Notes: generated by a model from the letters alone, not told the origin. A stretch of DNA of 64,000 bases from an uncultured Spirochaetota bacterium (GCA_963781885.1 CAWAHW010000001.1:544001-608000); one strand, 5' to 3'. Shown: positions 21,839-37,760, counted from the first letter of the stretch. Translations and numbers: made by a program.

Positions 21839-22684
21839 ATGCACACGACACTGGTCAACACGACAACCGCTGCCGCGCGTATTGCCAACCCCGACTGGCT
21901 TTTCGTCGACTGCCGCTTCAACATGCAGGATCCTGCGGCAGCCTTGCGCGACTACCAGGCTTCCCACATTCCCGGCGCACTGCGTGCAGATCTGGATGCT
22001 GACCTTTCGGGTCCCATCGTGCCGGGCCGGACGGGACGTCATCCCCTTCCGGCGCCCGACGCCCTTGTGCGCGTTTTTTCAGATTGGGGTATCGGGCCGC
22101 AGACCCAGGTCGTCGCCTATGATGAATCGACGGGCGCGATGGCCGCCGCGCGGCTGTGGTGGCTCCTGAAATGGGCAGGCCACGATCCGGTGGCGGTCCT
22201 GGACGGCGGCCTCAAAGCCTGGAGAGCCGCGGGGCTTCCCTGCAGCGAAGGGGCAGAGTCGCGGCAGGTGACGCCTTTTGCCGCGAGCTTCCGTCACGAG
22301 ATGGCCGTGGATGCGCGGCAGGTGCTCTCCGTGCTGAAAGATCCCGACTGGGTCGTGCTCGATGCAAGGGCTGCCGACCGGTATCATGGGCAGAATGAGA
22401 CGATCGACCCTACGGCCGGCCATATCGCAGGCGCCTTCTCCGCGCCGTACGCCGCCGCCCTTCGGGAGGACGGCACGTTCAAAGCGCAGGCGGAGGTCTC
22501 TGCCCTTTACCGTGCCGCGATGACCGGCCATGATGCCACACACACCGTTTTCTACTGCGGCTCGGGAGTCACCGCGACGCACGGCATCCTTGCCTGCGCG
22601 CACGCGGGTCTGGGCACGCCGCGACTCTACGCCGGCTCCTGGAGCGAATGGATCACCGACCCGTCGAGGCCGACCGCGCGATAA
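21839..22684 (+). CDS. Two-domain rhodanese / 3-mercaptopyruvate sulfurtransferase
   Basis: HIPGA, GRHPLP, AARLWW, LDGG, LDARA..RY.G, YCGSGVTA, LYAGSWSEW. Confidence 0.92.
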   Translation: MHTTLVNTTTAAARIANPDWLFVDCRFNMQDPAAALRDYQASHIPGALRADLDADLSGPIVPGRTGRHPLPAPDALVRVFSDWGIGPQTQVVAYDESTGAMAAARLWWLLKWAGHDPVAVLDGGLKAWRAAGLPCSEGAESRQVTPFAASFRHEMAVDARQVLSVLKDPDWVVLDARAADRYHGQNETIDPTAGHIAGAFSAPYAAALREDGTFKAQAEVSALYRAAMTGHDATHTVFYCGSGVTATHGILACAHAGLGTPRLYAGSWSEWITDPSRPTAR

Positions 22685-22714
22685 GGGTCGGGCCATACGG
22701 GCGGCCCTTCGTTC

Positions 22715-22734
22715 GCCTGAGGCTCCCCTCAGGC
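22715..22734. terminator. Hairpin between convergent genes
   Basis: Perfect 8-bp stem GCCTGAGG-CTCC-CCTCAGGC, with no clear U-tract. Confidence 0.4.
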
Positions 22735-22739
22735 TGACC

Positions 22740-24143
22740 TTATGCCTCCGATGCGTTCCGTTCGAGCGATGCGGTCGGCACCATGCCCCGATACGCGCGC
22801 AGGTACAAAGCCCCGCCGAGCACCACCACGAGGGAGAAGCCCATCATCAGGTTGCTGTAAGCAGATCCGGTGGATGCTGCGATACGCGGTAGCAACGCCA
22901 CGTTCAGCCACGTGCCCGCAAGGAGCCTGCCGACCACTGCGGTGCCGATTGCCCCCGACATGACGCCGACGAGATTGAAAAGACCCATGCCGACGCCCGT
23001 CTCGTGCTCGGGCAGCGTCTGGGAGACGCTGTTGATCATCGCCGTCTGGAAGAGCGCGAAGCCGATGTAGGTGGCGAGCAGCCCCGCCGCCACGACGAGC
23101 GACGAGACACTTTCCAGGAATGCCATCACGACGAAGCTCGTCGCCAGGAGCGCCAACCCCAGGGCGACCACGAAGCTGTTGCCTTTCCGGTCCGCCAGCC
23201 TGCCGCCAATGGGCCCGAATATCACGGAGCTGATCGCGCCGGGGAAAAGGATGAGCCCGATCTGGCTCGTGCCCAGGTGATGGACGTCGCTCAACATCAG
23301 CGGAACGAGGAAAAGCACGCCGATCACGACGAAAAAGAGGCAGAAACCGACGATCACGCCGTTGCGGAACCGGACGTTCGCAAAAAGTGACGGTGCAATG
23401 AACGGATCCGGCGCGCGCCGGATGCGAATGATGAAAAGGGCCAGCAGGACCACGAACGCCGCCAGGTAATACCAGGCGCTGAAGTTGAGATAGACCACGA
23501 TGGATCCGAGCGTGAGAGCAACCAGCGCGGCGCCGAGCAGGTCCACCTTTCCCTCCCGGCGCGGCTCGCGCGGCAGCTCCCGTGCAAGGAAGGGTATCGC
23601 GACCAGGAGGAGCAGCGGAATCAGGAAGAGGAAGGACCAATGCAGCTTCGCGGAGACGAAGCCGCCGATGACCGGCCCCAGCCCGATTGCAAGGGAAACC
23701 GTGGAGGTGATGATGCCGAAGACCCTGCCGCGCGCCTCCGGGGCAAAGTAGCGCGCCACCACGACGAAGATCAACGCCGGAATCGCCGAGCCGCCCATGC
23801 CCTGGATGGCCCTGGCGACCACCACGAGGGGATAGGAAGACTGCAGCGCGAATCCCATGACCGAGCCCACGAGGTAGAGGGTCACCCCGATCATGATGAG
23901 CCGCCGCAAGCTGTAGATGTCGGAGAGCTTTCCGTAGATGACCGAGCCGATGCCAAAGAAGACCATGAAGATCGTCATCATCCAGCTCACGCCGGCCGGG
24001 GTGAGGGAGAACTGGCGCGCGATCATGGGGGTGGAGACGTTGAAGACGGTCTCATTCAGGACCGCAAAGAATATGAGATAGATGATCCAGGGGACCAGGC
24101 GCTTGGGGTTCAAAAAATGCTCCTTTGCCGGAGAAAATAACAT
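22740..24143 (-). CDS. 14-TMS MFS efflux transporter, Tet(L)/Tet(K)-related DHA2 group
   Basis: FFAVLNETVFNVSTP, YGKLSDIY, ARAIQGMG, GLGPVIGG, GLILFPGA, GRLADRKG. Confidence 0.85.
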   Translation of the reverse strand: MLFSPAKEHFLNPKRLVPWIIYLIFFAVLNETVFNVSTPMIARQFSLTPAGVSWMMTIFMVFFGIGSVIYGKLSDIYSLRRLIMIGVTLYLVGSVMGFALQSSYPLVVVARAIQGMGGSAIPALIFVVVARYFAPEARGRVFGIITSTVSLAIGLGPVIGGFVSAKLHWSFLFLIPLLLLVAIPFLARELPREPRREGKVDLLGAALVALTLGSIVVYLNFSAWYYLAAFVVLLALFIIRIRRAPDPFIAPSLFANVRFRNGVIVGFCLFFVVIGVLFLVPLMLSDVHHLGTSQIGLILFPGAISSVIFGPIGGRLADRKGNSFVVALGLALLATSFVVMAFLESVSSLVVAAGLLATYIGFALFQTAMINSVSQTLPEHETGVGMGLFNLVGVMSGAIGTAVVGRLLAGTWLNVALLPRIAASTGSAYSNLMMGFSLVVVLGGALYLRAYRGMVPTASLERNASEA

Positions 24144-24371
24144 ATGGAATTTTGCATATACTTGGCAAATGGAAAGCCGGGAACTGCCGATGTATTTCTC
24201 TGTGGGGGAAAGTTTACCGTGCGGAAATAGGGCAGCCAGCTCCTGCTGCCACTCGTATTCCTTGACTCCGGCCGGGGCCGTTTGTAGCTTCTCTCACCGG
24301 GAGGGTACAGCCGTCGCCCTGGCGCGCCTCCTGGCCCTCGCCCGGACGTCGAGCGTTCGAGGAGGGTGGTG

Positions 24372-25271
24372 ATGGCAGCACATGCGTCCTGGAAGGGATT
24401 CCTGAAGCTCAGCCTCGTGTCGGTTCCCGTCAAGGCATACACGGCAACGGCCACCGGCAGCGACATCACGCTGCATCAGCTTCACGCGCAGACCCATACC
24501 CGCATCCAGTACAAGAAATTCGCCCCCGAGGTCGGCGAGGTATCGAGCGACCAGATCGTGAAGGGCTACGAATACGACAAGGGCCAGTACGTCATCATCG
24601 ACGAGGATGAGCTGGACAAGCTGCGCACGGAGAACGACAAGGCCATCCGCATCGACGGCTTCATCCCGCCCGACCAGTTGAGCACGGTCTATCTCGGCGG
24701 CAGGACCTACTTCCTGACCCCGGACGGCCCCGTGGGACAGAAGCCGTACAACCTCCTCATGAAAGGGATGGAAAAGGCGGGCCTCTGCGCCATCGCGGAA
24801 GTGGTCATTTCCCAGAAGGAGCAGGTCGTCATGGTGAGGCCCGTCGACGGGGTGCTCGCGATGACGGTGCTCAACCGCAAGGACGAGGTGAAGGCAGCCT
24901 CCGCGTTCAAGGACGAGATCACGGAGACGGAGGCCACGGAGGCGGAGAGATCGCTCGCCGATACCCTCATCCAGGCGTCGATCATCAAGGAGTTTGATTT
25001 CGGCCGCTACCACGACGTCTACAAGGAGAAGCTCACGAAGCTCATCCAGCTGAAGATTGAAGGCAAGGAGGTGGTCCAGGTGCGCGACCCCGAGGAGCCG
25101 AAGATCATCAACCTGATGGAGGCCCTCAAGCGCAGCGTGGAGGAAGCCCAGGCCGCGGGACGCACCGGTGGCGAGGAAAAGAAGAAGGCAAAGGCCGGCC
25201 TGAAGCAGACCGCCAGCGCCAAGCCTGCAAAGACGGTCACGGCTGCGCCGAAGAAGAGGAAGGTTGTCTAA
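24372..25271 (+). CDS. ku: Ku protein (NHEJ end-binding)
   Basis: SWKGFLKLSLVSVPVKAYTAT, RIQY, IVKGYEY, FDFGRYHDVYKEKL, INLMEALKRS and a basic C-terminal tail. Confidence 0.95.
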   Translation: MAAHASWKGFLKLSLVSVPVKAYTATATGSDITLHQLHAQTHTRIQYKKFAPEVGEVSSDQIVKGYEYDKGQYVIIDEDELDKLRTENDKAIRIDGFIPPDQLSTVYLGGRTYFLTPDGPVGQKPYNLLMKGMEKAGLCAIAEVVISQKEQVVMVRPVDGVLAMTVLNRKDEVKAASAFKDEITETEATEAERSLADTLIQASIIKEFDFGRYHDVYKEKLTKLIQLKIEGKEVVQVRDPEEPKIINLMEALKRSVEEAQAAGRTGGEEKKKAKAGLKQTASAKPAKTVTAAPKKRKVV

Positions 25272-26157
25272 GCACCTCCCGCGCCTCGTGCCGCCCATGC
25301 TGGCCGTGATGGGCCAGCCCTTCGATTCGGACACCCATTTCTTCGAGTTCAAGTGGGACGGCTACCGCGCCGTGGCGATGGTGGAGGACGGCGCCGTTCG
25401 CCTGGTGAGCAGGAAGGGCATCGACCTGACGGGTCGCTACCCGGCCCTTGCGCCGCTGGGCACGCTCCCCGCGGGGCTCGCGCTCGACGGGGAGATCGTC
25501 GCCTTTCGCAACGGCGTGCCGAGCTTCGAGCTGGTCGCGCACCACGATCGCGCGGCAACGGAGCCGCTGAAGTTCATTGCGTTCGACATCCTCTATCAAG
25601 CGTTCGAGCCGGTCATGGACCGGCCGTTCACGGAGCGCCGCGCGATGCTGGAGCGCGTGATCGCGGAGTCGCCACGCCCGCCGCTCGTTCTCTCGGAAGG
25701 CGTAGCGGCCACGGGAAAGGCCCTCTTCGAGAGGGCCTGCGTCCAGGGCCTCGAGGGCGTGGTGGCAAAACGGCTGGGGAGCACGTACGCCCCGGGCAAG
25801 AGGAATGGCGCCTGGGTCAAGATCAAGAGGCGTCTCAGCGTCCAGGTCGTCATCATCGGGTATATCGAAAAGGAAGGCCGCGATTTCCAGAGCCTCCTGG
25901 TGGCCTCCAACGGAATCCCGGGCGGCACGGGCGGACCGCTCCTCTACATCGGGAAGGTGGGGGGCGGGTTCACGGACGCAGTACGCGCGGAGCTGAACGC
26001 GCTCCTGCGGGAGCATCCCCGGGCAAAGCCCCTGGTGGCCTGTCCCGAGCGTGGCACATGGGTTGAGCCGGGCCTCTACTGCACGGTAAGCTTTGCAGAG
26101 ATGACCGGGGCCGGCATGCTTCGCGCTCCGGTCTTCGAGGGACTGATACACGCGTAA
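25264..26157 (+). CDS. Stand-alone ATP-dependent DNA ligase (LigD/LigC-type NTase+OB)
   Basis: Motif I EFKWDGYR, III LDGEIV, IIIa AFDIL, IV LEGVVAK, V WVKIK, OB-fold GKVGGGF..LRAPVF. Overlaps the ku stop. Confidence 0.92.
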   Translation: MSKHLPRLVPPMLAVMGQPFDSDTHFFEFKWDGYRAVAMVEDGAVRLVSRKGIDLTGRYPALAPLGTLPAGLALDGEIVAFRNGVPSFELVAHHDRAATEPLKFIAFDILYQAFEPVMDRPFTERRAMLERVIAESPRPPLVLSEGVAATGKALFERACVQGLEGVVAKRLGSTYAPGKRNGAWVKIKRRLSVQVVIIGYIEKEGRDFQSLLVASNGIPGGTGGPLLYIGKVGGGFTDAVRAELNALLREHPRAKPLVACPERGTWVEPGLYCTVSFAEMTGAGMLRAPVFEGLIHA

Positions 26158-26163
26158 GGACCG

Positions 26164-27354
26164 ATGGACACCACACCGTTGACGGGGGCAGAGGTCGCCC
26201 TGACAGGTCGTCTTCTCTCCATGACGCGCGCGCAGGCCGTGAAGCTCCTGCAGCAGGCGGGAGCGCGGCACGCGCGCGAGCCCGGCGCGTCCACCGCGCT
26301 GCTCGTGGCCGGGGAGGCCATCGGCAACCTCACCTCGGACGGCCGGATATCGCACAGCCTCGAGCTGTTCCGGCAGCTGAAGAGGCAGGGCAGCGCCATC
26401 CGCCTGGTGGAGGAGACGGAGTTCCTCCGCCTGCTGGGCGCGCAGGACTCGCTCGCCGACATCTCCCGGCTGTACACCGCTGAGCAGGTGAGCCGCATCG
26501 TGGAGGCGCCGCTTTCCGAGGTGCGCGCCTGGGTGCGCAAAGGCCTGCTCCAGCCGGCCCGGCAGCACAACCGGCTTGCCTGGTTCGAGTTCAAGAACAT
26601 CGTTCAGGCGCGCAACCTGAGCAGGCTCACCGCTTCAGGCGTACCGGCATCGCAGATCCACAGGAGCCTGTCGGAGATCGCGCGCTGGCTGCCCGACGGT
26701 GAGCGCATCATCGGCCGGCTGGAGGCCTACGCGCGCGGCCTGCGTGTGAGGCTTCCCGATGGCGGGCTCGCCGAGCCCAGCGGGCAGCGCCTCATGGATT
26801 TCCAGCGCAGCGGCAGGGGCGATGCGAGCCTCCAAGAGGTGAGGCGGGTATCGGTCTTTCCGTCCGAGGTTGCCGCGCCGCCGAAAGCCGGCACGCCTTC
26901 TGCCGCGGACTGGCGCGCTGCTGCCGAAGAGGCCGAGGAGCAAGGCGACCTCGGCGCGGCCGCGCTGGGCTATGCGCGGGCGGTTGCGGACGCACCCGAC
27001 GCGGAGACATTCTTCGACCTGGGCAATGTCCTCTACGAGCTGGGCAGGGAGGGGGAGGCGGCGGAGCGCTACTTGCAGGCCATCCAGCTCGAGCACGACT
27101 TCGCCGAGGCGTGGAACAACCTGGGCAACGCGCTCGTGGCGCTCCGCAAGCTGGAGGACGGCGTGCGCGCCTACGAGATGGCGCTTGCCCTGGAGCCCGG
27201 CTATCCCGACGCGCACTGCAATCTTGCCACCGTTCTGGAACGGCTGGGTCTCTCAGAGAAAGCCATGGCCCACCGGGGCGCCTGCCTGCGCGGGCTTCCT
27301 AGCGAAGCGCATCTCAGCCTGCTGCGCCAGCCGGCACGCGCTGACGAGGATTAG
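26164..27354 (+). CDS. BRCT + MerR-type HTH + TPR protein
   Basis: LigA-type BRCT (LTGAEVALTGRLLSMTRAQAVKLLQQAGA..LLVAGE..EETEFLRLL), MerR-like YTAEQVSRIV..VRAWVRKGLLQP, and TPRs FDLGNVLYELG / AWNNLGNAL / AHCNLA. Confidence 0.8.
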   Translation: MDTTPLTGAEVALTGRLLSMTRAQAVKLLQQAGARHAREPGASTALLVAGEAIGNLTSDGRISHSLELFRQLKRQGSAIRLVEETEFLRLLGAQDSLADISRLYTAEQVSRIVEAPLSEVRAWVRKGLLQPARQHNRLAWFEFKNIVQARNLSRLTASGVPASQIHRSLSEIARWLPDGERIIGRLEAYARGLRVRLPDGGLAEPSGQRLMDFQRSGRGDASLQEVRRVSVFPSEVAAPPKAGTPSAADWRAAAEEAEEQGDLGAAALGYARAVADAPDAETFFDLGNVLYELGREGEAAERYLQAIQLEHDFAEAWNNLGNALVALRKLEDGVRAYEMALALEPGYPDAHCNLATVLERLGLSEKAMAHRGACLRGLPSEAHLSLLRQPARADED

Positions 27355-27695
27355 CTGAAGTCTTCTTGAATGGGAGGACATGGCCGATACCACGCGGGAA
27401 GAGCTTTGCAGTGGCAACGGGGTCTGACTCCTGGTGGATCCTTGCTGGGCCCACTTGAGAGGGGGTACAAACCACGTCAAAGCCCGCCACGAGCGTCCTT
27501 ACGAAGACGAGCAAAGCTTTTCGGAAGTGGGGTACAACAGTCTTCTCGCTGAAACACTAGAACGATTTGTTTGACGTGAATATGAGTGAATAAGTAATAT
27601 TAATTGAGCACAGGGACTCTTCCAGCAGCGCACGGCTCGCCGTCGCAGCCAGGAAAAGCTCTTTAGTCTTTTCCGCGAGGGGGTAAGAGGTTTTT

Positions 27696-28913
27696 ATGAA
27701 AAGGATTTTATTCTTAGGTGCTCTGTTGCTCGTATTGGGTCTGGCGGCTTGTAAAACGCCGTCGCCGAGTGGAACTTCCTACTCCTACTGGCAAGCATAT
27801 TCGAGCGCAGTTGATTCCAGCGGCAACTACTACGTCGCCGGAACGCTCGCAACCTCGGCTCAGGCGTCGAACTCCACAAATACCCAAGGCATCCCGGTCT
27901 ACTGGGAAAACGGCGAAGCAGCACCGCAGCCACTGCCGATGGGCACAAATGGGGATAGCACGGCCAACAACTTTGGTTTTGCAGAGCGCGTTGTGACCCA
28001 AGGGACTCATGTTTATATCGTAGGCGGAGTGAATCACACCACGACCAGTGGCGTGGCCAACTCTCAAGCGGTCTACTGGAAAGACGGCGCGATAAACGTA
28101 CTATCCCTGAGCGGCGGCAACACTTGGGGGTGGGCAGACTGCATTGCCGTTGATGGCTCAGGGAACGTTTATGTTCTAGGTGAAGAGGGCAATAGCTCTA
28201 CCTATTACGCAATCTGGAAGAATGGCACTGTCCTTGCTTCCGCCGCAGCGAACCCATACTTCAACAATCAAGGGATCGCCGTGGACTCCAGCGGCAACAT
28301 ATGGGTCATTGGTCTCTATGGAACTTCGAACAACACCGCCGCAGCCGCATACGGTGAGTACAGTTCTTCCGGAAGCTTGCTAGCCAATGGCACGCCGTCA
28401 GGCGCCACAAACCTTACCGGCATTGTCGCGGACGCTTCCGGACACGTGTACATGTCAGGAACAACTGGAGGATCGCCTTTCTCCTATTCGACAGGCTATA
28501 GCAACAATTGGACACCAACCGTCTGGAAAAACTTGGTCGCTACATCTCAGGCCCTCACGGTGGGAGCCACAACCTACACCTACGGGTTTGCAAGGTCCCT
28601 CGCTCTTGACTCCTCGGCAAATATCTACGCCAGCGGAGTTGTGTTCAGTCCAGGCCCCACCGTACCTGTGTACTGGAAGTTGAACACCACCGCGACGGAG
28701 CTGAATGTGACAGGCTTCAGCTCTAATGCGGCTTGGCAACAATCAAGCATCGCTGTTGACGGATCGGGGAATGTGGATGCCGAAATCGAGACTACCCCTG
28801 GTACGGCGACTCAGACGAACAATTTCTTTGTCGCTCCTACGGCCTTGATCAATTGGATGGGAGCTTCAAACGCGCCAACGACCCTGATGAGCAATCCCGT
28901 GACTGTGCAATAG
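27696..28913 (+). CDS. Lipoprotein with beta-propeller (SBBP-like) repeats
   Basis: Lipobox LAAC. Repeated IAVDxSGNxY and xYWKxG units. Ser/Thr/Asn-rich. Confidence 0.75.
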   Translation: MKRILFLGALLLVLGLAACKTPSPSGTSYSYWQAYSSAVDSSGNYYVAGTLATSAQASNSTNTQGIPVYWENGEAAPQPLPMGTNGDSTANNFGFAERVVTQGTHVYIVGGVNHTTTSGVANSQAVYWKDGAINVLSLSGGNTWGWADCIAVDGSGNVYVLGEEGNSSTYYAIWKNGTVLASAAANPYFNNQGIAVDSSGNIWVIGLYGTSNNTAAAAYGEYSSSGSLLANGTPSGATNLTGIVADASGHVYMSGTTGGSPFSYSTGYSNNWTPTVWKNLVATSQALTVGATTYTYGFARSLALDSSANIYASGVVFSPGPTVPVYWKLNTTATELNVTGFSSNAAWQQSSIAVDGSGNVDAEIETTPGTATQTNNFFVAPTALINWMGASNAPTTLMSNPVTVQ

Positions 28914-28936
28914 GCCGCGATGGACATTCGCTCTTG

Positions 28937-28965
28937 CTCGGGGCTCACTCAGCCGGGCCCCGAGC
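28937..28965 (+). terminator. GC-rich hairpin after the propeller lipoprotein
   Basis: GCTCGGGGC...GCCCCGAGC inverted repeat. Confidence 0.45.
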
Positions 28966-29023
28966 CTATGCGGGGTGACCCTGCGCCCACAGTTTGAACG
29001 AATAGAAGCGCTGCAATGTCACG

Positions 29024-29051
29024 AAAAACGGACCGGCCACGGCCGGTCCGT
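29024..29051 (-). terminator. Intrinsic terminator for the minus-strand lipoprotein pair
   Basis: Stem ACGGACCGGCC/GGCCGGTCCGT with an adjacent A5 run (U-tract on the minus strand), 20 bp past the stop at 29071. Confidence 0.7.
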
Positions 29052-29070
29052 CATGGAAAACATGAGATTG

Positions 29071-29916
29071 CTAATTGCGTGCGAGGTGTCTGGCAGCCAT
29101 CACATCGGTCATGAGAAGGTAGGAACCATCACTTGCAACGCTGAATGTCCTGCTGCTTCCCGAGTTATTGTATAGCGTGGAAGTGCCTGCGGTGAAAGTA
29201 GTCCCCGAGGTCCATGTGTACGGAGTATTCACGTATTGCAGGTAATTATAGGTGAGGGTTTTCCCCTTGGCACTGTCGAGGCTCGTCACACTGTTCGGCA
29301 CGATCGCGCTCACCGTGTAGACACTGTTGGACTTGCTGCCATTGGTTGCCGTGCCAGTTGCGTCGTAGCTTACAGATTCCGAGGTGTACGTGACAGTCGA
29401 GAAATCGGGAGCGATGACAATAGTCCAGGTATACGTGTTTGACGTACCATCCCAGTAGGTTGTGTTTTGACTTTCAACGTAATTGCCGCCGCTTCCCGGG
29501 AGAGCTTCATACTCGTTGGAAGAACCGAATACTTCAGTGTATGAATATGTCCTGGTGGAAGTGGATGGCGAGCTGAGCATGACGTAGCTTCCACCAATGC
29601 CGCCATTCCATATCTGGGTGTAGGTGATCGTCATCATTCGCGTGCCGGTGTTGTAGGAGTACGTGCCTTTGTCGCCACCGGATTGCTCCCACGTGGAACT
29701 TGTGGCATCCCAACTCTTACTGATGTCTTCGTATGTGCCATCGGCCGCGTATGTCTCCGTATAGGAGCCATAAAAGGTATACGTCACATCCTTTGTCATG
29801 TGCCCATTGCTGTCAAAAGCAACCTCAGTATCGCTGTATGACCAGATCGGGCTGCACGCCGTCAGAAGCAACGCCCCAGCGGCCATCGCGATCAGAAGGA
29901 AGATGAGTTTCTTCAT
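29071..29916 (-). CDS. Hypothetical Ser/Thr/Tyr-rich lipoprotein, paralog 2
   Basis: MKKLIFLLIAMAAGALLLTAC lipobox, AAGGAG RBS. Confidence 0.8.
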   Translation of the reverse strand: MKKLIFLLIAMAAGALLLTACSPIWSYSDTEVAFDSNGHMTKDVTYTFYGSYTETYAADGTYEDISKSWDATSSTWEQSGGDKGTYSYNTGTRMMTITYTQIWNGGIGGSYVMLSSPSTSTRTYSYTEVFGSSNEYEALPGSGGNYVESQNTTYWDGTSNTYTWTIVIAPDFSTVTYTSESVSYDATGTATNGSKSNSVYTVSAIVPNSVTSLDSAKGKTLTYNYLQYVNTPYTWTSGTTFTAGTSTLYNNSGSSRTFSVASDGSYLLMTDVMAARHLARN

Positions 29917-30888
29917 GCCGACTCTCCTTGAATATTTACCAAAAGCATTTTTACGGGCTCTCACGTTGCCGGGACAACGGAGAGGCTATTTGATTCCAAG
30001 GTGCTTCGGCACATTCATATTGGGATAGACGATGTAGGAACCGTCGCTTGCAATGCTAAATGTGTCGCTTTCCGAGTTATTGTATGTCGTGGAAGCGCCT
30101 GCGGTGAAGTCAGTCCCCGAGGTCCATGTGGACGGAGTGTCGACGTAACTCAGGTAATTATAGGTAAGGGTTTTCCCCTTGGCACTGTCGAGGCTCGTCA
30201 CTCCGCTTGGGAAGATCGCGCTCACCGTGTAGACGTCGCTGGACTTGCTGCCACCGTTTGGCGCGCCAGATGCGTCGTAGCTTACAGATTCCGAGGTGTA
30301 CGTGACAGTCGAGAAATCGGAGGGGATGACAATGGTCCAGGTATATGTGTTTGACGTACCATTCCAATAGGTCCTGTTTTGACTTTCAATGTAGTTGCCG
30401 CCGCTCCCGGGGAGAGCTTCATACTTGTTGGAGGAACTGAATACTTCAGTGTATGAATATGTCTTGCGGGAAGTGGACAATGAGGTGAGCGTGACGTAGC
30501 TTCCACCAATGCCGCCATTCCATATCTGGGTGTAGGTGATCGTCATCATTCGTGTGCCGGTATTGTAGGAGTACGTGCCTTTGTCGCCACCGGATTGCTC
30601 CCACGCGGAGTCAATGGCATTCCAACTCGTTCTGATGTCTTCATATGTGCCATCGGCCGAGAAAGTCTCCGTGTAAGAGCCACGAACGATATACGTGACA
30701 TCCTTTGTCATGTGCCCATTGCCGTCAAAAGCAACCTCGGTATCGCTGTATGACCAGATCGGACTGCATGCCGTCAGAAGCAACGCCCCTGCCGCCGTCA
30801 CGATCAGAAGGAAGATGAGTTTCTTCATGCCGCCACTCCTTGAACATTTACCAAAAATCTTTTTGAGAGCTCACTTCGCCGGGACAAT
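29120..30888. repeat. Tandem duplication, unit ~912 bp (gene plus ~60 bp upstream leader)
   Basis: Long identical DNA blocks in both genes. The upstream leaders also align (TCCTTGAA.ATTTACCAAAA...GCCGGGACAA at ~29925-29978 and ~30837-30888). Confidence 0.85.
29986..30828 (-). CDS. Hypothetical Ser/Thr/Tyr-rich lipoprotein, paralog 1
   Basis: MKKLIFLLIVTAAGALLLTAC lipobox. Collinear and highly similar to 29071-29916. Confidence 0.8.
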   Translation of the reverse strand: MKKLIFLLIVTAAGALLLTACSPIWSYSDTEVAFDGNGHMTKDVTYIVRGSYTETFSADGTYEDIRTSWNAIDSAWEQSGGDKGTYSYNTGTRMMTITYTQIWNGGIGGSYVTLTSLSTSRKTYSYTEVFSSSNKYEALPGSGGNYIESQNRTYWNGTSNTYTWTIVIPSDFSTVTYTSESVSYDASGAPNGGSKSSDVYTVSAIFPSGVTSLDSAKGKTLTYNYLSYVDTPSTWTSGTDFTAGASTTYNNSESDTFSIASDGSYIVYPNMNVPKHLGIK

Positions 30889-30928
30889 GCACGTCCCCGC
30901 GCCCATCATATAATGATGGCGCATCATG

Positions 30929-33900
30929 TCAACATGGTCCTGGTGTCGCGATCTCTTTCGCCATCTCACGGTAGCGACACAGGCCATTTGCCCACCGCAT
31001 CTGCTCGGGCGTGCTGCATTCCGGCTCCAGGAGGCGGCGCGCCGCCACAAGGATGCATACGCACTGGGCGCGGCTGGTGGCCACGTTCAACCGGTTTGGA
31101 TTGAAGAGGAAACCCATGCCGCGAGGCGCGTCGATGGCGGAGGAGCTTGCCATCGAATAGATGACCACGGGAGCTTCCTGGCCCTGGAACTTGTCCACGG
31201 TTCCCACGCGGAGCGCGGGAAGACGGGCCGAAAGCGCCGCCACCTGCGCGTTGTAGGGCGCCACGACTAGTATGTCGGATGCGTGCAGCCTGCGCGCCGT
31301 GCCGTGCGAATCGGTCCACGTCACGTCGGGTGAGAGAAGGCTCTCCGCAATGGCCGCGATTGCCGCCACCTCCTCCGGAGAGCTGTTCTGATTGCCTTCG
31401 TGGTCCACGGGCACGTAGAAAAGGCCGCTGCCGGCAAAGGGCGTATCACCGTTGATGGCCTGTCGCTCCAGCCCCGCGCGGGAACGGAGCCGGCCTTCGT
31501 AGAAAAGCTCGGAGGTGAACGCGCATATGCGGGGGTGCAGCCTCCAGGTCTCGTCGAGGAAAAGCCCCGCCTCATCGGCAAGCGTCTTCCGCCCCTCCAG
31601 CACGTGCACAAGAGCCGCCACCTCCGCACCTTCGGGATGCGCGCCGCGCTGGGGCTGCTCGAGCTGCTGCGGGTCGCCCAGGAGAACGAGGTTGCGCGCG
31701 GACCTCGCAGCGGCGAGCGCGAACGCCAGCGACATCTGTCCTGCCTCATCGATGAAGAGGTAATCCACCGATTCGATCATGTCGTCCCGGGCCCAGAACC
31801 AGCAGGTTCCGCCGACCACCTTGCCCTGGCCGAGCCCTGCCGCTGCCTTTTCGTTCTTGTCCGTCTCTTCGACGCCCGGCGTCTTTTCCACGCCCCGCTT
31901 GCTCACCTTGTGAATGGCAGCCACGGGCGCACCTGCGGGGGCCGCGCGGACGACCTGCTCCAGGAAGTGCCTGATCACCTTGTGACTGACAGCCGTGACC
32001 CCAATGCGCTTTCCGGCGGTCGCGAGGGCGACGATCATCCGCGCGCCCGTGTACGTCTTTCCCGTCCCGGGCGGCCCCTGCACCGGCAGCACCCCGTTGT
32101 CCAGGTCCCGGGCAAGGCGAATGGCCGCATCCACCAGGTTCTCCCCCGACCGCCGGAGCGCGCCCTGCGCGGGTGTGCGAAGCCGCGGCTTCCTCTTCAG
32201 GAGCAGGTCCCGGGCGGCGCGATAAGGCCCGTTGCCGTTCACGCCGCGGCGCGCGCTGGACACGCCGAGCTCCAGCAGCGCCTTGTCCACGGGCCGCGGC
32301 GGCACCCTTTCGTTCACCATGACGGCAAAGGGATGCCGGTCCGCGGTTGACGGCCTCCGTTCGATGTCGATCGTGCCGTCTGCAAGATCCAGCGCGCTCA
32401 CCTTCCCGATGACGCCGCCGCCGATCTCGTAAAGCTCGTCTCCGTCGCCGAAGGCAGCCTCCTGCGCGGGAAAGGCGTAGCGGTGCACGGGTGATCGCGC
32501 GCTGCCGCCGACGGCCTGGAGAAAGCGCAGACCGGAAATGGCCTTTCGTTCCTCCATGAGCTCCTCGTGATCGAGGCCGTGGATCCGGAAGAACTCCCAC
32601 CACGCGCACTTGTCCTCGCGGCGGAAATATTCGAGCTGGTGCGCAAGGAGCCATTGCCCCCGATGCTCCTCTCCCCATTCTTCGCGATCGTCGGGAAGCG
32701 CGCCGGTCAATTCCTCAAAAGCGGCCTTCACCTCCCCGGCCTGCTCCGCCACCGCCTCGCTTGCCTCACCGGTCTTCTCTTCAGGCCGGGGCACGCGCCG
32801 TCCTTTTGCCGCCCATTCCTCCCGGCGCTCCTCCAGCCATGCCTGGAGCGCGGCGGTTGCCCGGCAGTCATCGCAGTTGTAGGACTCCACCGCGTCGCGG
32901 TCGGAGGCGAAAATCTCCAGGTCCGCCGTGCCGGGTGCAAGCTCCAGCACGCGCGCGATCCTGCGGAGCGCCTGGCCTGCCGCGCGAAGCTCCAGGGACC
33001 GGTGAAATGCAAATGCCGGCTCGAGCGACTTCAGCGAATAGCTTTCCACGCTGACCCGCATGCCTTGCCGCGTCACGGCGAGCAGGTCCACGAACTTTTC
33101 CGCGCGCAGCAGACGGTCCAGCTCCTCCTCCCGTATGCCGTGCCGGCCGATCATCCTTTTCACCGCGCCGGGCTCGTACGGCGAGAAGTGGTAGATGTGC
33201 ATGCCGGGGTGCCCCCGCCATCTGTCCATGACAAAATCCATGATCTCTTCGAGGGCCTTTTTTTCTTCCGCCATGGTGAAGGCCCAGAGCGGCCGATAGG
33301 ACAGGACGCCGTCCGGTGCGACGAATGCCACGCCGAGCAGGTATTCCAGGCCTGTCTCCAGGGCAAAGGGATCCGACTCGATATCGAACCAGATGTCACC
33401 CGGATCCGGCGCGGGCAGGAGCGCCAGCCCCTTGCCAGGCTCGATCGGCAGGAGCTCGTGGAGGATGCGGCCCGCTTCCCGTCCGGCAAGCTGGATGCGC
33501 GCCTGGCCGTGCACGCGCGCGAATGCCTCATCGCTTCCCCGCGCCGGCTTGCGGCGAAACGGCGCCGGCTCCCGCGCGAGCTTCTCCAGCGTGCCGATGC
33601 CTTGCTGCTCGAGCTCGGCAATATGGAGCGGACGGATGCCGGCAACGAGGCAGAGGTGATCGTCGGCGTGCCGGCGCGCATCGCACTCCTTCCACCACCG
33701 GCAGACGTCGCAATGCGCCACGGGGTAGGGGTAGGTGGCTGCCGGTGCGGCGGCCACGGTCTGCTCCAGTCTTCGCTTGACCAGGCGGCAGTACGCGCTG
33801 TAGTCGCTGAAGCGAAAGCTTTCCCGGACAAAATCCTGGCCCGGCTTTATCACGTGCATGTGCTCGGGAGGCAGCCCCTGCAGGTATCCCACAAGCTCCG

Positions 33901-34351
33901 AGTAGAGGCAGAGCTGCAGCACCGTACCCGCGCGTGTCTCCTGCGCCAGCTTTGTATCGGCAACCTCGTAGGACCAGTCACCCAGGTTGCTCGGCCTTGG
34001 CACGCGCAGCAGGAGGTCCGCGCGGCCGACCCATCGTCCCTCGCCAAGCTGGGCCTGCACGATGGCTCCAGCCCCCGCGGCCATGGCGTTCCGGGTCCTT
34101 TCAAGCGACGTTGCGACGGCGTCCGCGGGGAGCTCCACGACCTCGACGCCGCTTTTTTTCAGATGCTCCACGTACGCCCGTTCATGGATGGCGCCCCGTT
34201 GCCGCAAGAGCTCCACGCTTGGATCCATCCACGACGGGGCCGCGATGCGCCGCTCTGCAACGGCGCGGTCGAGCTGCGTGAGGTGACGGCAGGCCAGATG
34301 GTTGGCGATGTCGGTCGCGGACAGAAAGAGCTCTCCGCCCTCCACGTGCAT
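30929..34351 (-). CDS. TM0106-family RecB-like nuclease + RNase H-fold exonuclease + SF1B (Dna2/UPF1-like) helicase
   Basis: LSATDIANHLAC, GRADLL..YEVADTKLA, QLCLYS, HCDVCRWWKEC, WFDIESDP..YNCDDC, QGPPGTGKT, IDEAGQ, GDPQQL, TVDKFQGQEA, NRLNVATSRA. RBS AGGAG before 34351. Confidence 0.88.
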   Translation of the reverse strand: MHVEGGELFLSATDIANHLACRHLTQLDRAVAERRIAAPSWMDPSVELLRQRGAIHERAYVEHLKKSGVEVVELPADAVATSLERTRNAMAAGAGAIVQAQLGEGRWVGRADLLLRVPRPSNLGDWSYEVADTKLAQETRAGTVLQLCLYSELVGYLQGLPPEHMHVIKPGQDFVRESFRFSDYSAYCRLVKRRLEQTVAAAPAATYPYPVAHCDVCRWWKECDARRHADDHLCLVAGIRPLHIAELEQQGIGTLEKLAREPAPFRRKPARGSDEAFARVHGQARIQLAGREAGRILHELLPIEPGKGLALLPAPDPGDIWFDIESDPFALETGLEYLLGVAFVAPDGVLSYRPLWAFTMAEEKKALEEIMDFVMDRWRGHPGMHIYHFSPYEPGAVKRMIGRHGIREEELDRLLRAEKFVDLLAVTRQGMRVSVESYSLKSLEPAFAFHRSLELRAAGQALRRIARVLELAPGTADLEIFASDRDAVESYNCDDCRATAALQAWLEERREEWAAKGRRVPRPEEKTGEASEAVAEQAGEVKAAFEELTGALPDDREEWGEEHRGQWLLAHQLEYFRREDKCAWWEFFRIHGLDHEELMEERKAISGLRFLQAVGGSARSPVHRYAFPAQEAAFGDGDELYEIGGGVIGKVSALDLADGTIDIERRPSTADRHPFAVMVNERVPPRPVDKALLELGVSSARRGVNGNGPYRAARDLLLKRKPRLRTPAQGALRRSGENLVDAAIRLARDLDNGVLPVQGPPGTGKTYTGARMIVALATAGKRIGVTAVSHKVIRHFLEQVVRAAPAGAPVAAIHKVSKRGVEKTPGVEETDKNEKAAAGLGQGKVVGGTCWFWARDDMIESVDYLFIDEAGQMSLAFALAAARSARNLVLLGDPQQLEQPQRGAHPEGAEVAALVHVLEGRKTLADEAGLFLDETWRLHPRICAFTSELFYEGRLRSRAGLERQAINGDTPFAGSGLFYVPVDHEGNQNSSPEEVAAIAAIAESLLSPDVTWTDSHGTARRLHASDILVVAPYNAQVAALSARLPALRVGTVDKFQGQEAPVVIYSMASSSAIDAPRGMGFLFNPNRLNVATSRAQCVCILVAARRLLEPECSTPEQMRWANGLCRYREMAKEIATPGPC

Positions 34352-34364
34352 GGCCTGTCTCCTT

Positions 34365-36398
34365 CTACGACTGCAGGAGCTTTTCCAGCGCCTTGATGCC
34401 CCGACCGAGGTCCTGGGGGTTTGCCTGCGCGGTGCGGAAGAGGTCTCCCGTCCGCTCGATGCGCGCGGCGGCGTTTGCAAGCGTGAAATCCGCGACGTGC
34501 AGCTCCCCTTCCAGCTCGTCCCATGCCAGCGGCATGGAAACCGAGGCAGCCTCAACGGGCCGCACGACGTAAGGCGGCACCACGGTCTGTTCGCGCCGGT
34601 TCTGCAGGAAATCGATATAGACGCGGCCGGCCCGGCGGCCCACGACGCGCTCCACCGTGGCGATGTCCCCGTGATCGCGCACGACCATGCGGGCAATCGT
34701 CTCGCAGAACATCCTGCTCTGATCGTAGGTGAAGCCGGGCGTGAGCGGGATGCACACGTGCAGCCCCGACGAGCCCGAGGTCTTCAGGTATGGCTCGATG
34801 CCGATGCCGCGGAGCAGCTTGCCGACCACCCGCGCAATCTTCACGACGTCCGTGAAAGGCGCCTCCTTGGGATCGAGGTCCAGGATGGCCCAGTCCGGCG
34901 ATTCGAGGCTGTCCGTGCGTGACAGCCAGGGGTGCAGGTCGATGCTGCCCGCGTTGACGAGCGTGAGGAGGGCCTTGCGGTCGTTGCAGACCGCGTACAG
35001 GGTCGGCTCCTCACCATCCCGCGCAACGTCCACCGTTTCGCACTGGTCCAGCAGCTCCGGCGGGAGCTGCTTCTGATAAAAGGATTTACCGCGAATCCCG
35101 TCCGGCCACCGGTAGAGGTGCAGCGGGCGATCCTCCAGGTACGGCAGCAGCCAGTTCGCGACCCGGTCGTAGTAGCGCGCGAGATCCCCTTTCGTGTAGC
35201 CCTGTTCCGGCCAGTAGACCTTGCGCGGATGCGTGATGGCGACGCCCGTCGGCGCGTCCTTTTTCTGGGACCGCTTCTTTGCCGGCGTCTTTGGCTTCAT
35301 GCCCGGCACCACGCGCACCCTCTGCCAATCCTCCGATACTCCAGAACGATAGGGACTGTCCGCGCGCTTGGCGATGATGCCCGGCAGACCCGATTGCGCC
35401 GCGGCGTCCGCAAAAGCCAGGCCGTGCTCTGCCACCGGGTCGACCGTCAGGACGCGGCCGGATTCCGGCACGAGGGACCGGAGCACCGCCTTGCGCTCGC
35501 GTAGGGGCAGGCGCGTGAGGTCCCACTCTTCTGCATAGAGGATGTCGAAAAGGTAGAGCACCGCGTGCGCGCCACCGGATCGCAGCTCTTCTTCCAGCGC
35601 CGCCTCGGTGGGAACGCCGCGCGCGTCCATTGCCACGATGACCCCGTCCAGGAGCGCCGTGCCGGCGCGCACCGCGGCCAGCCCTGCGGCAAGCGCAGGC
35701 AGCCGGGGCGCAAGATCTTCCTTCTTCGTGCGGAGGCTGACCGTGGAGTCCTGGACGCGCGCCAGGACGCGCCGGCCGGCAAAGAGAGGCTCGAAGAGCC
35801 ACGCGGGGTCGTCAAACGCCCCCGCGCGGTCCGCCGGCTCCATGCGCGCGCGGCCGCGGGGCGCGGCCTTCTGCCGCGCAAGGCTCATGTCCGCGGCGCC
35901 GAAGAGGTCGCTGCCGGATCCGGCGTAGCGGTCGCGCGCCTTGAAGAGCAGCCAGTTCCTGCCGTCGCCGGTCTTCGTGCGCACCATGTGCCATTCCCCG
36001 CGCAGGTGCCGGCCCTTCAGCTCAAGCTTCAGCTCGCCCTTTTCCAGCGCCGCGGCGATCGTCGGTGATTTGCGCACCTCGTACACCCCGGCGTCCCAGA
36101 TGCGCATCGTGCCGGCGCCGTACTGGCCCTTGGGGATGGGACCTTCGAAGTCCCGGTACAGAAGCGGGTGGTCCTCCGTGCGCACGGCGAGCCTCTTGTC
36201 CCCGGGCGCATAGGAGAAGCCCTTCGGCACGGCCCAGCAGGCAAGTACGCCATTTGCCTGGATGCGCAGGTCATAGTGCAGGTTGCGCGCCTCGTGGCGA
36301 TGGACGACGAATGCGTTTCCTTTGGCGCCGCGTTTCCCCGGCCGCGGCTCGGGGGTCTTCCTGAAGTCGCGCTTGCCGCGATAATCATCCATCGCCAT
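34365..36398 (-). CDS. ligD: LigD-like protein: phosphoesterase + degenerate ligase + primase-polymerase
   Basis: PE domain (HRHEARNLHYDLR, WAVPKG, TEDHP..Y..FEG.IP.GQYGAG) and Pol domain (DLDP, KTSGSSGLHV, YIDFLQN). The central ligase-like domain lacks KxDG. Confidence 0.9.
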   Translation of the reverse strand: MAMDDYRGKRDFRKTPEPRPGKRGAKGNAFVVHRHEARNLHYDLRIQANGVLACWAVPKGFSYAPGDKRLAVRTEDHPLLYRDFEGPIPKGQYGAGTMRIWDAGVYEVRKSPTIAAALEKGELKLELKGRHLRGEWHMVRTKTGDGRNWLLFKARDRYAGSGSDLFGAADMSLARQKAAPRGRARMEPADRAGAFDDPAWLFEPLFAGRRVLARVQDSTVSLRTKKEDLAPRLPALAAGLAAVRAGTALLDGVIVAMDARGVPTEAALEEELRSGGAHAVLYLFDILYAEEWDLTRLPLRERKAVLRSLVPESGRVLTVDPVAEHGLAFADAAAQSGLPGIIAKRADSPYRSGVSEDWQRVRVVPGMKPKTPAKKRSQKKDAPTGVAITHPRKVYWPEQGYTKGDLARYYDRVANWLLPYLEDRPLHLYRWPDGIRGKSFYQKQLPPELLDQCETVDVARDGEEPTLYAVCNDRKALLTLVNAGSIDLHPWLSRTDSLESPDWAILDLDPKEAPFTDVVKIARVVGKLLRGIGIEPYLKTSGSSGLHVCIPLTPGFTYDQSRMFCETIARMVVRDHGDIATVERVVGRRAGRVYIDFLQNRREQTVVPPYVVRPVEAASVSMPLAWDELEGELHVADFTLANAAARIERTGDLFRTAQANPQDLGRGIKALEKLLQS

Positions 36399-36427
36399 AT
36401 TCGTCCAATGTAACAGGAAGGCGGCGT

Positions 36428-37057
36428 GTGAGCGACATACCTGTTCTTGTCGATGAGCCGCGCGCGGGAAAGACGATCGCCACGATCGTGCTTGCGCATG
36501 GGGCAGGGGCGGCCATGGATTCGGACTTCATGGAGGACGTCGCCCACGCCCTTGCCGCGGAGTCGCTGCGGGTCGTCCGCTTCGAGTTCCCCTACATGCG
36601 GGAGAAGCGGGAAACGGGGAGACGGGGGCCGCCGGATCCCACGGCCGTGCTGGAGGAGACCTGGCTTTCCGTGATCGCGCAGCTCGGGACGCAGACGAAG
36701 CTCGTGATCGGCGGCAAATCAATGGGGGGCAGGATCGCCAGCATGATCGCGGACACGGCGGCGGTGCATGGCCTTGTCTGCATGGGTTATCCGTTCCACC
36801 CCACCGGCCGGCCTACAAGCCTGCGCGTCTCCCATTTGAAGGACCTGAAGACGCCCACACTGATCCTGCAGGGCGAGCGCGACACACTCGGGAGCCGCGA
36901 CGAGATTGCCGGCTACGTCTTGTCGTCGAGAATACGCCTGTCCTTTCTTCCCGACGGCGACCATTCCTTCAAGCCTCGAAAGAGCTCGGGTCGTACTTAT
37001 GAGCAGAATCTTGCGGAGGCTGTAAGAGAGACCGTGGCTTTTTGCAGAAATCTGTAG
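36428..37057 (+). CDS. Alpha/beta hydrolase (KANL3/Tex30-like)
   Basis: LAHGAGAAMDS, RFEFPYM, GGKSMGGRIAS, QGERD, DGDHSF. Confidence 0.88.
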   Translation: MSDIPVLVDEPRAGKTIATIVLAHGAGAAMDSDFMEDVAHALAAESLRVVRFEFPYMREKRETGRRGPPDPTAVLEETWLSVIAQLGTQTKLVIGGKSMGGRIASMIADTAAVHGLVCMGYPFHPTGRPTSLRVSHLKDLKTPTLILQGERDTLGSRDEIAGYVLSSRIRLSFLPDGDHSFKPRKSSGRTYEQNLAEAVRETVAFCRNL

Positions 37058-37077
37058 CTTTGGTGTTGATATTGCAT

Positions 37078-37105
37078 GTTAACGGTGTTACAGTAACGAT
37101 GTTAC
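37078..37105 (+). promoter_or_regulatory. Tandem TAAC-N3-GTTA operators upstream of tetR
   Basis: GTTAACGGTGTTAC and GTAACGATGTTAC. The same motif recurs at 37716. Confidence 0.65.
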
Positions 37106-37116
37106 GGAAGCTGAGA

Positions 37117-37695
37117 ATGACTAGAGCAGCCAATATCGACCTTGCGGCAAGAATCCTCGCAGAGGCAGAGAAAGTCGTCGTGGCATCCGGCCACGAAGGC
37201 ATAAACATGAGGCGGCTTGCCAGCCAAGTCGGCGTGAGCGCAACATCGATCTACCGCTACTATGAGAGCAAGGAAGCGATACTCAGGAAACTGAGGATAA
37301 AGGCCGCGGAAAAGCTCAACGACAGGATAAGGTCGATAGATTCCCGCCTCCCTGCGCACGAGTTCCTTCACGAGCTGGGCCGGCAGTATGTCGCCTATGC
37401 GCAGGAAAATCCGCAGATGTACCGCATGCTCTTCGAAGCGCCATTTGACGAGCGCGGCGAGGCGGAGGATCACCCGGTGCTCTATTACACCTACCTCGCG
37501 GCGCGTGGCGCGCTTGAAAAGGCATCGAAAGAGAGCTTGAAAGAGGTTGATCCGGGACTCCAAGCCATGATGGGCTGGATCTTGCTGCATGGCTTTTGCT
37601 CGCTCATGATGTCGGGAATGCTTCCCCCTGCGGAGGGCATGAGCCGGGAAAAGCTGCAGGAAGTCTTCATGCGTTTTTATTCGGAGGGCAAGTGA
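37117..37695 (+). CDS. TetR/AcrR family regulator
   Basis: HTH INMRRLASQVGVSATSIYRYYESKEAI and a WHG-like C-terminus (WILLHG). Confidence 0.9.
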   Translation: MTRAANIDLAARILAEAEKVVVASGHEGINMRRLASQVGVSATSIYRYYESKEAILRKLRIKAAEKLNDRIRSIDSRLPAHEFLHELGRQYVAYAQENPQMYRMLFEAPFDERGEAEDHPVLYYTYLAARGALEKASKESLKEVDPGLQAMMGWILLHGFCSLMMSGMLPPAEGMSREKLQEVFMRFYSEGK

Positions 37696-37715
37696 GGCTT
37701 TTTTTTCGGCCTGAA

Positions 37716-37742
37716 GTTAACATTGTTAACATAACATCGTTC
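37716..37742 (+). promoter_or_regulatory. TAAC-N3-GTTA operator pair upstream of the oxidoreductase
   Basis: Palindrome GTTAACATTGTTAAC followed by TAACATCGTT. Confidence 0.65.
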
Positions 37743-37760
37743 TAATACAAGGAGGAGAGC

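Follow-up and report, generated by a model that had tools for sequence, protein, structure and literature searches.

Which of the genes gathered at the nonhomologous end-joining (NHEJ) locus of an uncultured Spirochaetota bacterium form a conserved repair system, and which of their products would seal the break? The locus lies in a 64,000-nucleotide stretch of the genome of this soil spirochaete (GCA_963781885.1, CAWAHW010000001.1:544001-608000), hereafter the window, and all positions count from the window's start. A preliminary description had proposed a five-component double-strand break repair machine, made up of Ku, a ligase on a separate polypeptide, a BRCT-MerR-TPR protein as dedicated scaffold or regulator, LigD, and a Dna2-like nuclease-helicase as the end-processing enzyme. 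The reading that we regard as likely is a narrower one: a conserved four-gene variant of NHEJ, with a dead-ligase LigD, a ligase in trans, and a protein that combines BRCT, winged helix-turn-helix (wHTH), and TPR parts, to which the nuclease-helicase has been added locally.

An intact ligase beside ku and a LigD predicted not to ligate

The repair genes and their parts are as follows.

24262-24290, plus strand: promoter-like element of ku (TTGACT, 17-nt spacer, TAGCTT)
24372-25271, plus strand: ku, 299 aa from ATG (TIGR02772, PF02735)
25203-25223, plus strand: Ku tail motif KQTASAK (Ku residues about 278-284), a variant of K-x-A-P-S-A-K, followed by a lysine run
25264-26157, plus strand: stand-alone LigD-type ATP-dependent DNA ligase gene (lig), 297 aa, nucleotidyltransferase (NTase) plus OB domain (PF01068, PF04679)
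26164-27354, plus strand: BRCT/MerR-like wHTH/TPR gene, 396 aa, third and last gene of the ku operon
30929-34351, minus strand: TM0106-family nuclease-helicase gene, 1140 aa (TIGR03491, PF13482, AAA_11, AAA_12)
34365-36398, minus strand: ligD, domain order PE, NTase-like, Pol
35931-36389, minus strand: PE domain of LigD, residues 4-156 (TIGR02777, PF13298)
35316-35822, minus strand: dead NTase module of LigD, residues 193-361 (PF01068, 46.7 bits)
34437-35243, minus strand: Pol domain of LigD, residues 386-654 (PF21686, 276 bits)

All five genes were present with the spacing first described. The TTG start codon of lig gives an 8-nt overlap with the end of ku, and the BRCT gene follows 6 nt past lig; on the other strand the TAG stop codon of ligD is followed by 13 nt (AAGGAGACAGGCC), which include an AAGGAG ribosome binding site, and then by the ATG of the helicase gene at 34351. 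The two operons face each other, as had been reported, but they do not abut, since a 3.6-kb lipoprotein island lies between them. A GTG at 24366 is a possible alternative start for ku. Scans of positions 22000-38000 with Rfam and for tRNAs gave no match.

The product of ku matched TIGR02772 over the whole model (positions 1-259 of 259) at 254.1 bits, against a cut-off of 150, and is a member of the bacterial Ku family. It was the only Ku found in a search of the window's own genome, which is 92.55% complete and was searched but for 16000 bases; the ligase-NTase matches in that genome numbered two, namely the live lig and the dead module of ligD. The stand-alone ligase carries both an NTase domain (PF01068, 103.7 bits) and an OB domain (PF04679, 61.5 bits), and its motifs I, III, IV, and V are intact (FEFKWDGYR, LDGEIV, EGVVAKR, and WVKIK). 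Its score against TIGR02779, 223.8 bits, falls slightly below the cut-off of 227.75.

LigD has a PE domain that scored 193.5 bits against TIGR02777 (cut-off, 144) and a Pol domain that scored 241.6 bits against TIGR02778 (cut-off, 214.7), and both therefore qualify as LigD domains. The NTase-like module between them lacks the catalytic motif set of a LigD ligase: motif I reads FEPLFAGRR, with no lysine, and motif III reads LDGVIV, with no glutamate, followed by PGIIAKR (motif IV) and WQRVR (motif V). Against TIGR02779 it reached 109.8 bits (cut-off, 227.75), over model positions 9-183 of 302 only. LigD gave no match to PF04679, and the roughly 43 residues that separate the NTase-like part from Pol lead us to conclude that it has no OB domain.

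In five pairwise comparisons the ratio of nonsynonymous to synonymous substitution rates (dN/dS) was 0.09-0.19 for the dead module, 0.05-0.13 for PE, and 0.04-0.10 for Pol. The values for the module indicate that it is being maintained and is not decaying; judged by its residues and by these ratios, the ligase module of LigD is predicted to be catalytically dead and under purifying selection. That it is a functionless remnant on its way to loss is highly improbable. It does evolve faster than its neighbours, with 58-64% identity within the genus vs 76-84% for PE and Pol, but besides its low dN/dS it is kept in 30/31 LigDs from two phyla, at 39-51% identity between the phyla, and its length and non-catalytic motif positions, such as the AKR of motif IV, are conserved.

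Public source names for the dead-ligase LigDs (proteins P0126-P0194) are "non-homologous end-joining DNA ligase" or "bifunctional NHEJ protein LigD." To judge by the motifs, the ligase activity in these names is probably a misannotation.

The four-gene set recurs in Spirochaetota and Planctomycetota

We carried out two surveys of gene neighborhoods. For close relatives, 20 loci were fetched around matches to the BRCT gene, from the same genus and from other genera of the order; the wider survey used a profile search with the BRCT protein, restricted to one genome per species, and gave 80 loci. Strong matches to the BRCT protein, full-length or fragmentary, were found in 18/20 genomes of the genus and in five genomes of other genera in the order. 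Eighteen of the 20 relatives' loci contained ligD, and in every one of them lig and the BRCT gene are on the other strand, such that the two sets converge. Twelve of these 18 had a Ku match, and none was present upstream of lig in the remaining six. As for the two loci without ligD, one contig ends right after the BRCT gene, and the other (L037) is considered below.

The LigD alignment for close relatives comprised 14 single-open reading frame (single-ORF) relatives and the window's own protein, with four LigDs that were split over several ORFs left out. The motif I lysine and the motif III glutamate were missing in 15/15, including two relatives at 49-50% identity, and both residues were retained in 16/16 stand-alone ligases.

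In the wider survey, 62/80 loci held members of the BRCT family, and the remainder matched through TPR repeats only. The record titles of the 62 were Spirochaetota or Spirochaetia metagenome-assembled genomes (MAGs), Planctomycetota MAGs, and a few unclassified MAGs. Where both flanks were available (51 loci), Ku, Lig, and LigD occurred together in 29, Lig and LigD in 2, Ku and Lig in 2, Ku only in 3, Ku and LigD in 1, and the hydrolase only in 1; in 15 loci none of these genes was found. The BRCT gene and ligD lay tail to tail in 14 loci, with their ends 9-50 nt apart, which is probably the ancestral layout. LigD ORFs beside BRCT genes lacked the catalytic residues in 30 of 31 cases, with a PE-to-Pol segment of 192-268 aa; by title these were 13/13 from Spirochaet* records and 17/18 from Planctomycetota or unclassified records. 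The sole live, full-length LigD (L070) has a 398-aa segment with motif I HEIKFDGYR, and its locus has Ku and a BRCT gene and no separate lig. All stand-alone ligases retained motifs I, III, and V (34/34), and the glutamate and lysine of motif IV were likewise found in 34/34.

The four-gene layout, in which ku, a live lig, and the BRCT-wHTH-TPR gene converge on a gene for PE-dead NTase-Pol, thus recurs in Spirochaetota and Planctomycetota; gene content, the state of the motifs, conservation, selection, and distribution are direct observations. The survey of gene neighborhoods that the preliminary description had called for therefore gave a divided result: four of its five genes travel together across two phyla, and the nuclease-helicase is linked to ligD only in one terminal clade of one genus. 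Its claim that ligation has moved to a separate polypeptide is supported by the 30/31 dead LigDs and 34/34 intact ligases.

Two side observations concern the relatives' loci. Frame splits or in-frame TGA codons occur in repair genes at some of them (among L031, L032, L039, L040, and L041): the helicase gene is affected in four genomes (G003, G008, G009, and G018), and the BRCT gene or lig in L039, L040, and L041, through either assembly error or real decay. One sub-clade of the genus has about 5 kb of additional sequence between ku and lig (L046, 4261-8238; L047, 5348-8686). The products of this block are a BNR/sortilin-like protein, an alpha/beta hydrolase, a wHTH protein, and an ECF sigma factor, the last of them encoded just 5' of lig.

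A BRCT, MerR-like, and TPR protein as the third product of the ku operon

Domain assignments for the third protein were made from sequence profiles and a structure model. MerR_1 (PF13411) was matched at 29.3 bits, above the cut-off of 21.6, which identifies a MerR-type winged HTH, and TPR families of Pfam scored above their cut-offs, with four to five TPR repeats. The BRCT family PF00533 stayed below its gathering score (17.5 vs 21.3 bits; E, 0.0051; residues 1-100). In NCBIfam, the N terminus matched the BRCT ends of Pol III epsilon (E, 3.9e-7) and LigA (E, 6.3e-5), and a sequence search of PDB matched it to E. coli LigA (E, 0.0086). Rows for PPR-repeat proteins in the phmmer search of PDB with the same N terminus were rejected as spurious (0 stretches).

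A Foldseek search with the whole protein was dominated by TPR matches, in keeping with a TPR-protein-like C-terminal part, and because these swamped the rest, the N-terminal 200 residues were folded alone. The model had a mean pLDDT of 79.4 and shows the BRCT fold, with elements in the order beta1-alpha1-beta2-beta3-alpha2-beta4-alpha3. Foldseek identified the BRCT domains of RFC1 (2ebu and 2k7f), LigA (1l7b, 2owo, and 9a6z_B), and PARP1 (2cok), with TM scores of 0.56-0.58 normalised to the target and an rmsd of 1.8 over 89 columns for 9a6z_B, and it matched the wHTH to the MerR-type proteins BrlR, NmlR, and GlnR (5xbt, 5d90, and 4r4e). The protein thus has a single BRCT of the same fold class as those of RFC1, LigA, and PARP1, with a sequence match to the LigA domain as well; what sets it apart from those is the fusion to a MerR-like wHTH with four to five TPR repeats and the location of its gene in a ku operon. 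By this structural likeness, the BRCT domain probably contacts DNA ends or nicks. A profile of the BRCT plus wHTH N terminus, run against 1.84 billion proteins, gave 341 cluster representatives at an E of 1e-30 or lower and 1227 at 1e-10 or lower; most of the 150 matches listed were 360-460 aa long.

The C-terminal tails of Ku from Spirochaetota and Planctomycetota have in common the motif K-x-A-P-S-A-K ahead of a lysine run, a candidate docking peptide on the strength of its sequence. Modelling of pairwise complexes, which had been suggested at the outset, was done for Ku2 with the BRCT protein only. The score was 0.40, against 0.00 for the best of three controls, in a range (0.60 or below) in which the mark was passed by only 18 of the 157 solved complexes but by both of the mismatched pairs that passed at all; overall, it was passed by 116/157 solved complexes and 2/215 mismatched pairs. 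Contact agreement between runs was at least 39%, and the pLDDT of the partner was at least 66. We take this as weak support for a contact.

The MerR-like part raises the alternative that the protein is a damage-sensing autoregulator of the NHEJ genes and no subunit of a repair complex. The MerR_1 score above the Pfam cut-off and the Foldseek matches to BrlR, NmlR, and GlnR agree with such a role, as does the position of the gene at the end of the operon, and part of the family is located apart from NHEJ genes. In the classical case, a MerR-type activator works at a promoter with a 19-20-nt spacer and a dyad operator. The ku promoter does not fit this pattern: its spacer is 17 nt, and no conserved palindrome was seen in the 10 aligned upstream regions. 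In the same alignment TTGACT was invariant, as was the TA...T of the second hexamer; downstream, as far as 24371, there is a conserved GGGAGGG and then a GC-rich leader of about 75 nt, which is missing in three relatives. A BRCT of a DNA-end-binding class and the Ku contact, for all its weak support, also speak for a place at the break, and regulatory and repair roles can coexist. We consider a regulator in place of a repair subunit unlikely. The earlier proposal of a dedicated scaffold or regulator can be kept insofar as the protein is a conserved member of the cluster; a scaffold role may be read from its domains, with weak support from the Ku2 fold.

The nuclease-helicase is a lineage-specific addition

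The helicase gene product matched TIGR03491 at 251.9 bits (cut-off, 97.45) over model positions 3-462 of 462 and so belongs to the TM0106 family. Of its three modules, the N-terminal one is a PD-(D/E)xK nuclease with four cysteines of the Fe-S type; a DEDD exonuclease of RNase H fold comes next, and the C terminus is an SF1B (Upf1/Dna2-like) helicase. The exonuclease was absent from the preliminary description. Invariant residues of the nuclease are Cys21, Cys214, Cys217, and Cys223, together with D112, E129, K134, and Y150, and Q146 is present in at least 90%. The exonuclease has an invariant DEDD-type pattern (FDIE...YxxxD), and the helicase has intact Walker A (GPPGTGKT) and Walker B (DEAGQ) motifs.

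The closest sequence matches in PDB were the helicases Upf1, IGHMBP2, and DNA2, with Upf1 and IGHMBP2 best; the DNA2 match was limited to helicase residues 757-957 (E, 7e-12), and Upf1 was better. Like Dna2 (PDB 5eax and 5ean), the enzyme has an N-terminal PD-(D/E)xK nuclease with four conserved cysteines and a C-terminal SF1B helicase. Unlike Dna2, it has an extra DEDD exonuclease between the two, its nuclease matches TIGR03491 and has no PDB match to Dna2, and its link to NHEJ is not conserved. With respect to architecture, then, "Dna2-like" seems a fair term. A literature search for TM0106 returned only unrelated papers.

If the enzyme were a dedicated, co-evolved end-processing subunit of NHEJ, as the five-component proposal holds, it would be expected beside the other four genes. 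Several features favor that proposal: the 13-nt gap to ligD with its AAGGAG, three intact catalytic modules, the resemblance of an Fe-S nuclease joined to an SF1B helicase to Dna2, and the ligD-helicase order itself, which is found in 8/13 same-genus loci, where the gene lies between the BRCT gene and ligD, and in seven metagenome loci. The distribution argues otherwise. The helicase gene is in this position in 0/5 loci of other genera and in none of the wider-survey loci titled Planctomycetota or unclassified. By genome, it was present in 16/20 of the same genus, in 1/4 others of the family, and in 0/16 of other families in the order; it was not found in 4/20 genus genomes, and a phylum-wide sample had it in 2/301, the window's own genome included. 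In five relatives (G009, G014, G015, G017, and G023) the NHEJ locus is helicase-free, and the helicase gene is on another contig or 1.1 Mb away.

The wider family tells the same story. It is large, with 7849/8000 scored candidates at an E of 0.001 or lower, and includes members with the source names KSB1, Thermoanaerobaculia, Planctomycetota, and Chryseolinea at 54-63% identity; ligD lies directly upstream in 7/74 metagenome loci of helicase relatives. A tree was built from 50 full-length copies and the window's. For 30 of these, ligD is absent from the 2.5 kb upstream, and for 11 the upstream sequence is too short to tell. The other 10, which are linked to ligD, group in a single terminal clade of 14, with four unlinked copies nested among them. 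Elsewhere in the family the neighboring genes are unrelated. The helicase gene, a widespread stand-alone gene, is therefore a lineage-specific addition outside the conserved set. It is probably co-transcribed with ligD in one sub-lineage of the genus, and we consider it quite unlikely that it completes a five-component machine, the part of the preliminary description that is not supported. A search of sequencing runs for the stretch listed no RNA run, and the one DNA run listed had a word share of 0.19.

The neighbors of unlinked copies bear on a different possibility, that the gene serves in defence against phages or plasmids, or in general repair, and came by chance to a site prone to rearrangement. 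They include DUF429, RmuC, RNA ligase, UvrD-like/DUF4062/Schlafen, and RhuM/Fic with DUF2130 genes. With PADLOC, the helicase region only (840-1130) matched MkoA/MkoC of Mokosh, and also the helicase region of DpdJ. These matches, the Schlafen/DUF4062/UvrD-like and RhuM/Fic plus DUF2130 settings of some relatives, the spread of a large family over many phyla at 54-58% identity, and the gain of MFS and lipoprotein genes in the same BRCT-ligD interval are all in line with a chance arrival. Against it, there was no full-length match to any PADLOC system protein, those of Mokosh included; many neighbors are housekeeping-like, and presence in 16/20 genus genomes would suit a core function. Chance arrival is a distinct possibility, although we lean against it.

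The idea that this enzyme is the host's only resection enzyme is unlikely because the window's own genome has two adjacent PDDEXK_1 matches that are AddAB-like. This pair (L200/L201) lies on one strand of contig 7, at 121831-125082, and one of the matches holds a TGA. No match to RecC was found in the own genome.

How the four proteins might divide the work

We infer the division of labor among the proteins, the adaptor role, and any part of the helicase in end joining from their domain families. Ku would bind the broken ends, and the LigD-like protein would perform end healing (PE) and gap filling (Pol) only; its dead NTase module, having lost the OB partner, would be kept as a non-enzymatic module. 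The separate LigD-type ligase, translationally coupled to ku, would seal the break. The BRCT/wHTH/TPR protein would most likely be an adaptor at the break, with the wHTH contacting DNA and the TPR repeats binding a partner peptide, for which the conserved tail motif of Ku is one possibility. The parts, now separate, could then be kept together at the break by the dead module and the BRCT/TPR protein.

A more elaborate version, which by analogy we put forward only tentatively and regard as unlikely, is that non-catalytic modules have replaced fusion. The dead NTase would be a platform for docking or for sensing nicks and would pass the nick, once repaired, to the ligase in trans; the BRCT protein would scaffold the complex, with BRCT on the break and TPR on the K-x-A-P-S-A-K tail of Ku, analogous to adaptors of the XRCC4/XRCC1 type; and the Dna2-like enzyme would have been recruited, in the sub-lineage where it follows ligD, for the trimming of blocked ends.

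Several points weigh against the four-gene reading. At one same-genus locus (L037; genome G011, contig 54) the BRCT gene stands without lig over the 1.8 kb upstream and without ligD over the 15 kb downstream, and among the 51 BRCT-family loci with both flanks there are 15 in which NHEJ genes are absent within 10 kb. The tie between the BRCT protein and the cluster is therefore not a strict one. The complex prediction for Ku2 and the BRCT protein is weak and came without a returned interface, and the MerR-type HTH is compatible with a purely regulatory role. The tight ligD-helicase junction is kept in the sub-lineage down to about 58-72% helicase identity, and there may be a real functional link between the two genes within it. 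Finally, the two surveys share some contigs, and kin are not independent of each other. With these points taken into account, we still hold the four-gene variant with a local helicase addition to be the likely reading. As a side observation, the genome with L037 is also one in which the helicase was not found.

Genes around and between the operons

The remaining features of the locus lie outside the repair set.

27355-30928, no strand: island of 3.6 kb between the operons, three lipoprotein genes in a lower-GC stretch
27696-28913, plus strand: island lipoprotein gene, beta-propeller-like (weak SBBP beta-propeller matches only)
29071-29964, minus strand: island lipoprotein gene, tandem copy (by signal peptide and lipobox analysis of island ORFs)
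29986-30828, minus strand: island lipoprotein gene, tandem copy (by the same analysis)
30932-30905, minus strand: island promoter-like site, strong (TTGACA, 16 nt, TATGAT), overlapping the end of the helicase gene
36428-37057, plus strand: alpha/beta hydrolase gene (PF20408, 257.9 bits), divergent from ligD

The GC content of the island is 0.537 (28001-30000) vs about 0.64-0.68 around it. Its two tandem copies are 80% identical and 912 nt apart. None of the three genes had a match in the 20 relatives' loci. The two tandem ORFs matched no family in PHROGs, PADLOC, Pfam, or NCBIfam apart from one PHROG match at 0.0046, and a search of the protein Atlas with the island ORFs gave only "lipoprotein" leads below 0.9. 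The locus is rearrangement-prone; in sister genomes the BRCT-ligD interval contains an MFS gene.

The PF20408 hydrolase gene, which the preliminary description did not mention, adjoins ligD in 13/13 same-genus loci with ligD and in 0/5 loci of other genera. It is a conserved neighbor at the level of the genus and a candidate accessory gene. It shares 16 nt with the start of a TetR-family gene (region 36428-37695).

Comparison with known end-joining systems

Textbooks and censuses treat bacterial end joining as the work of two proteins, Ku and LigD, and by the motifs examined here a group of lineages appears to keep a LigD that does not ligate. Our searches of the main texts and abstracts of the open literature turned up neither a LigD whose LIG module is dead nor a bacterial BRCT/TPR partner for NHEJ. 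In PMC9226535, BRCT is mentioned only for PolX proteins, and neither BRCT nor TPR appears in PMC6379672 and PMC11936186; the available portions of PMC7719229 and PMC8656161 mention no Planctomycetes, Spirochaetes, or inactive LIG. That purifying selection acts on a ligase module which is catalytically dead points to LIG having a structural part in the assembly of the repair complex, one that can be tested apart from catalysis, and in the BRCT/TPR protein there is a concrete candidate for an accessory factor of bacterial NHEJ. At about 5 kb the four-gene cluster is compact and might serve as a heterologous end-joining module for genome editing.

The preliminary description had placed this system closer to the modular eukaryotic layout than to the textbook one. 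This is an analogy, drawn from a BRCT adaptor and a separate ligase, and does not mean homology of the system.

Canonical bacterial NHEJ, as set out for Pseudomonas aeruginosa and Agrobacterium in the accessible parts of PMC1920237 and PMC8656161, consists of Ku and a three-domain LigD of the order PE-LIG-POL. The window's system resembles it in its bacterial-family Ku, in the domain order of LigD, in bona fide PE and Pol domains, and in the clustering of ku and ligD-type genes. It differs in a LIG module without catalytic residues and OB, in a separate ligase coupled to ku, and in a third gene for a BRCT-wHTH-TPR protein. Censuses that count hidden Markov model matches to LIG would, going by the available text of PMC7719229, class such a dead-LIG system as "conventional." In split or "nonconventional" NHEJ the LigD domains are on separate proteins, as the available portions of the reports on Methanocella paludicola (PMC4797286) and Streptomyces (PMC5124664) and of the classification in PMC7719229 describe it. 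The window's system shares with it a ligase activity predicted on a polypeptide of its own beside Ku; unlike the split systems, it keeps a multidomain LigD with the dead ligase module still inside.

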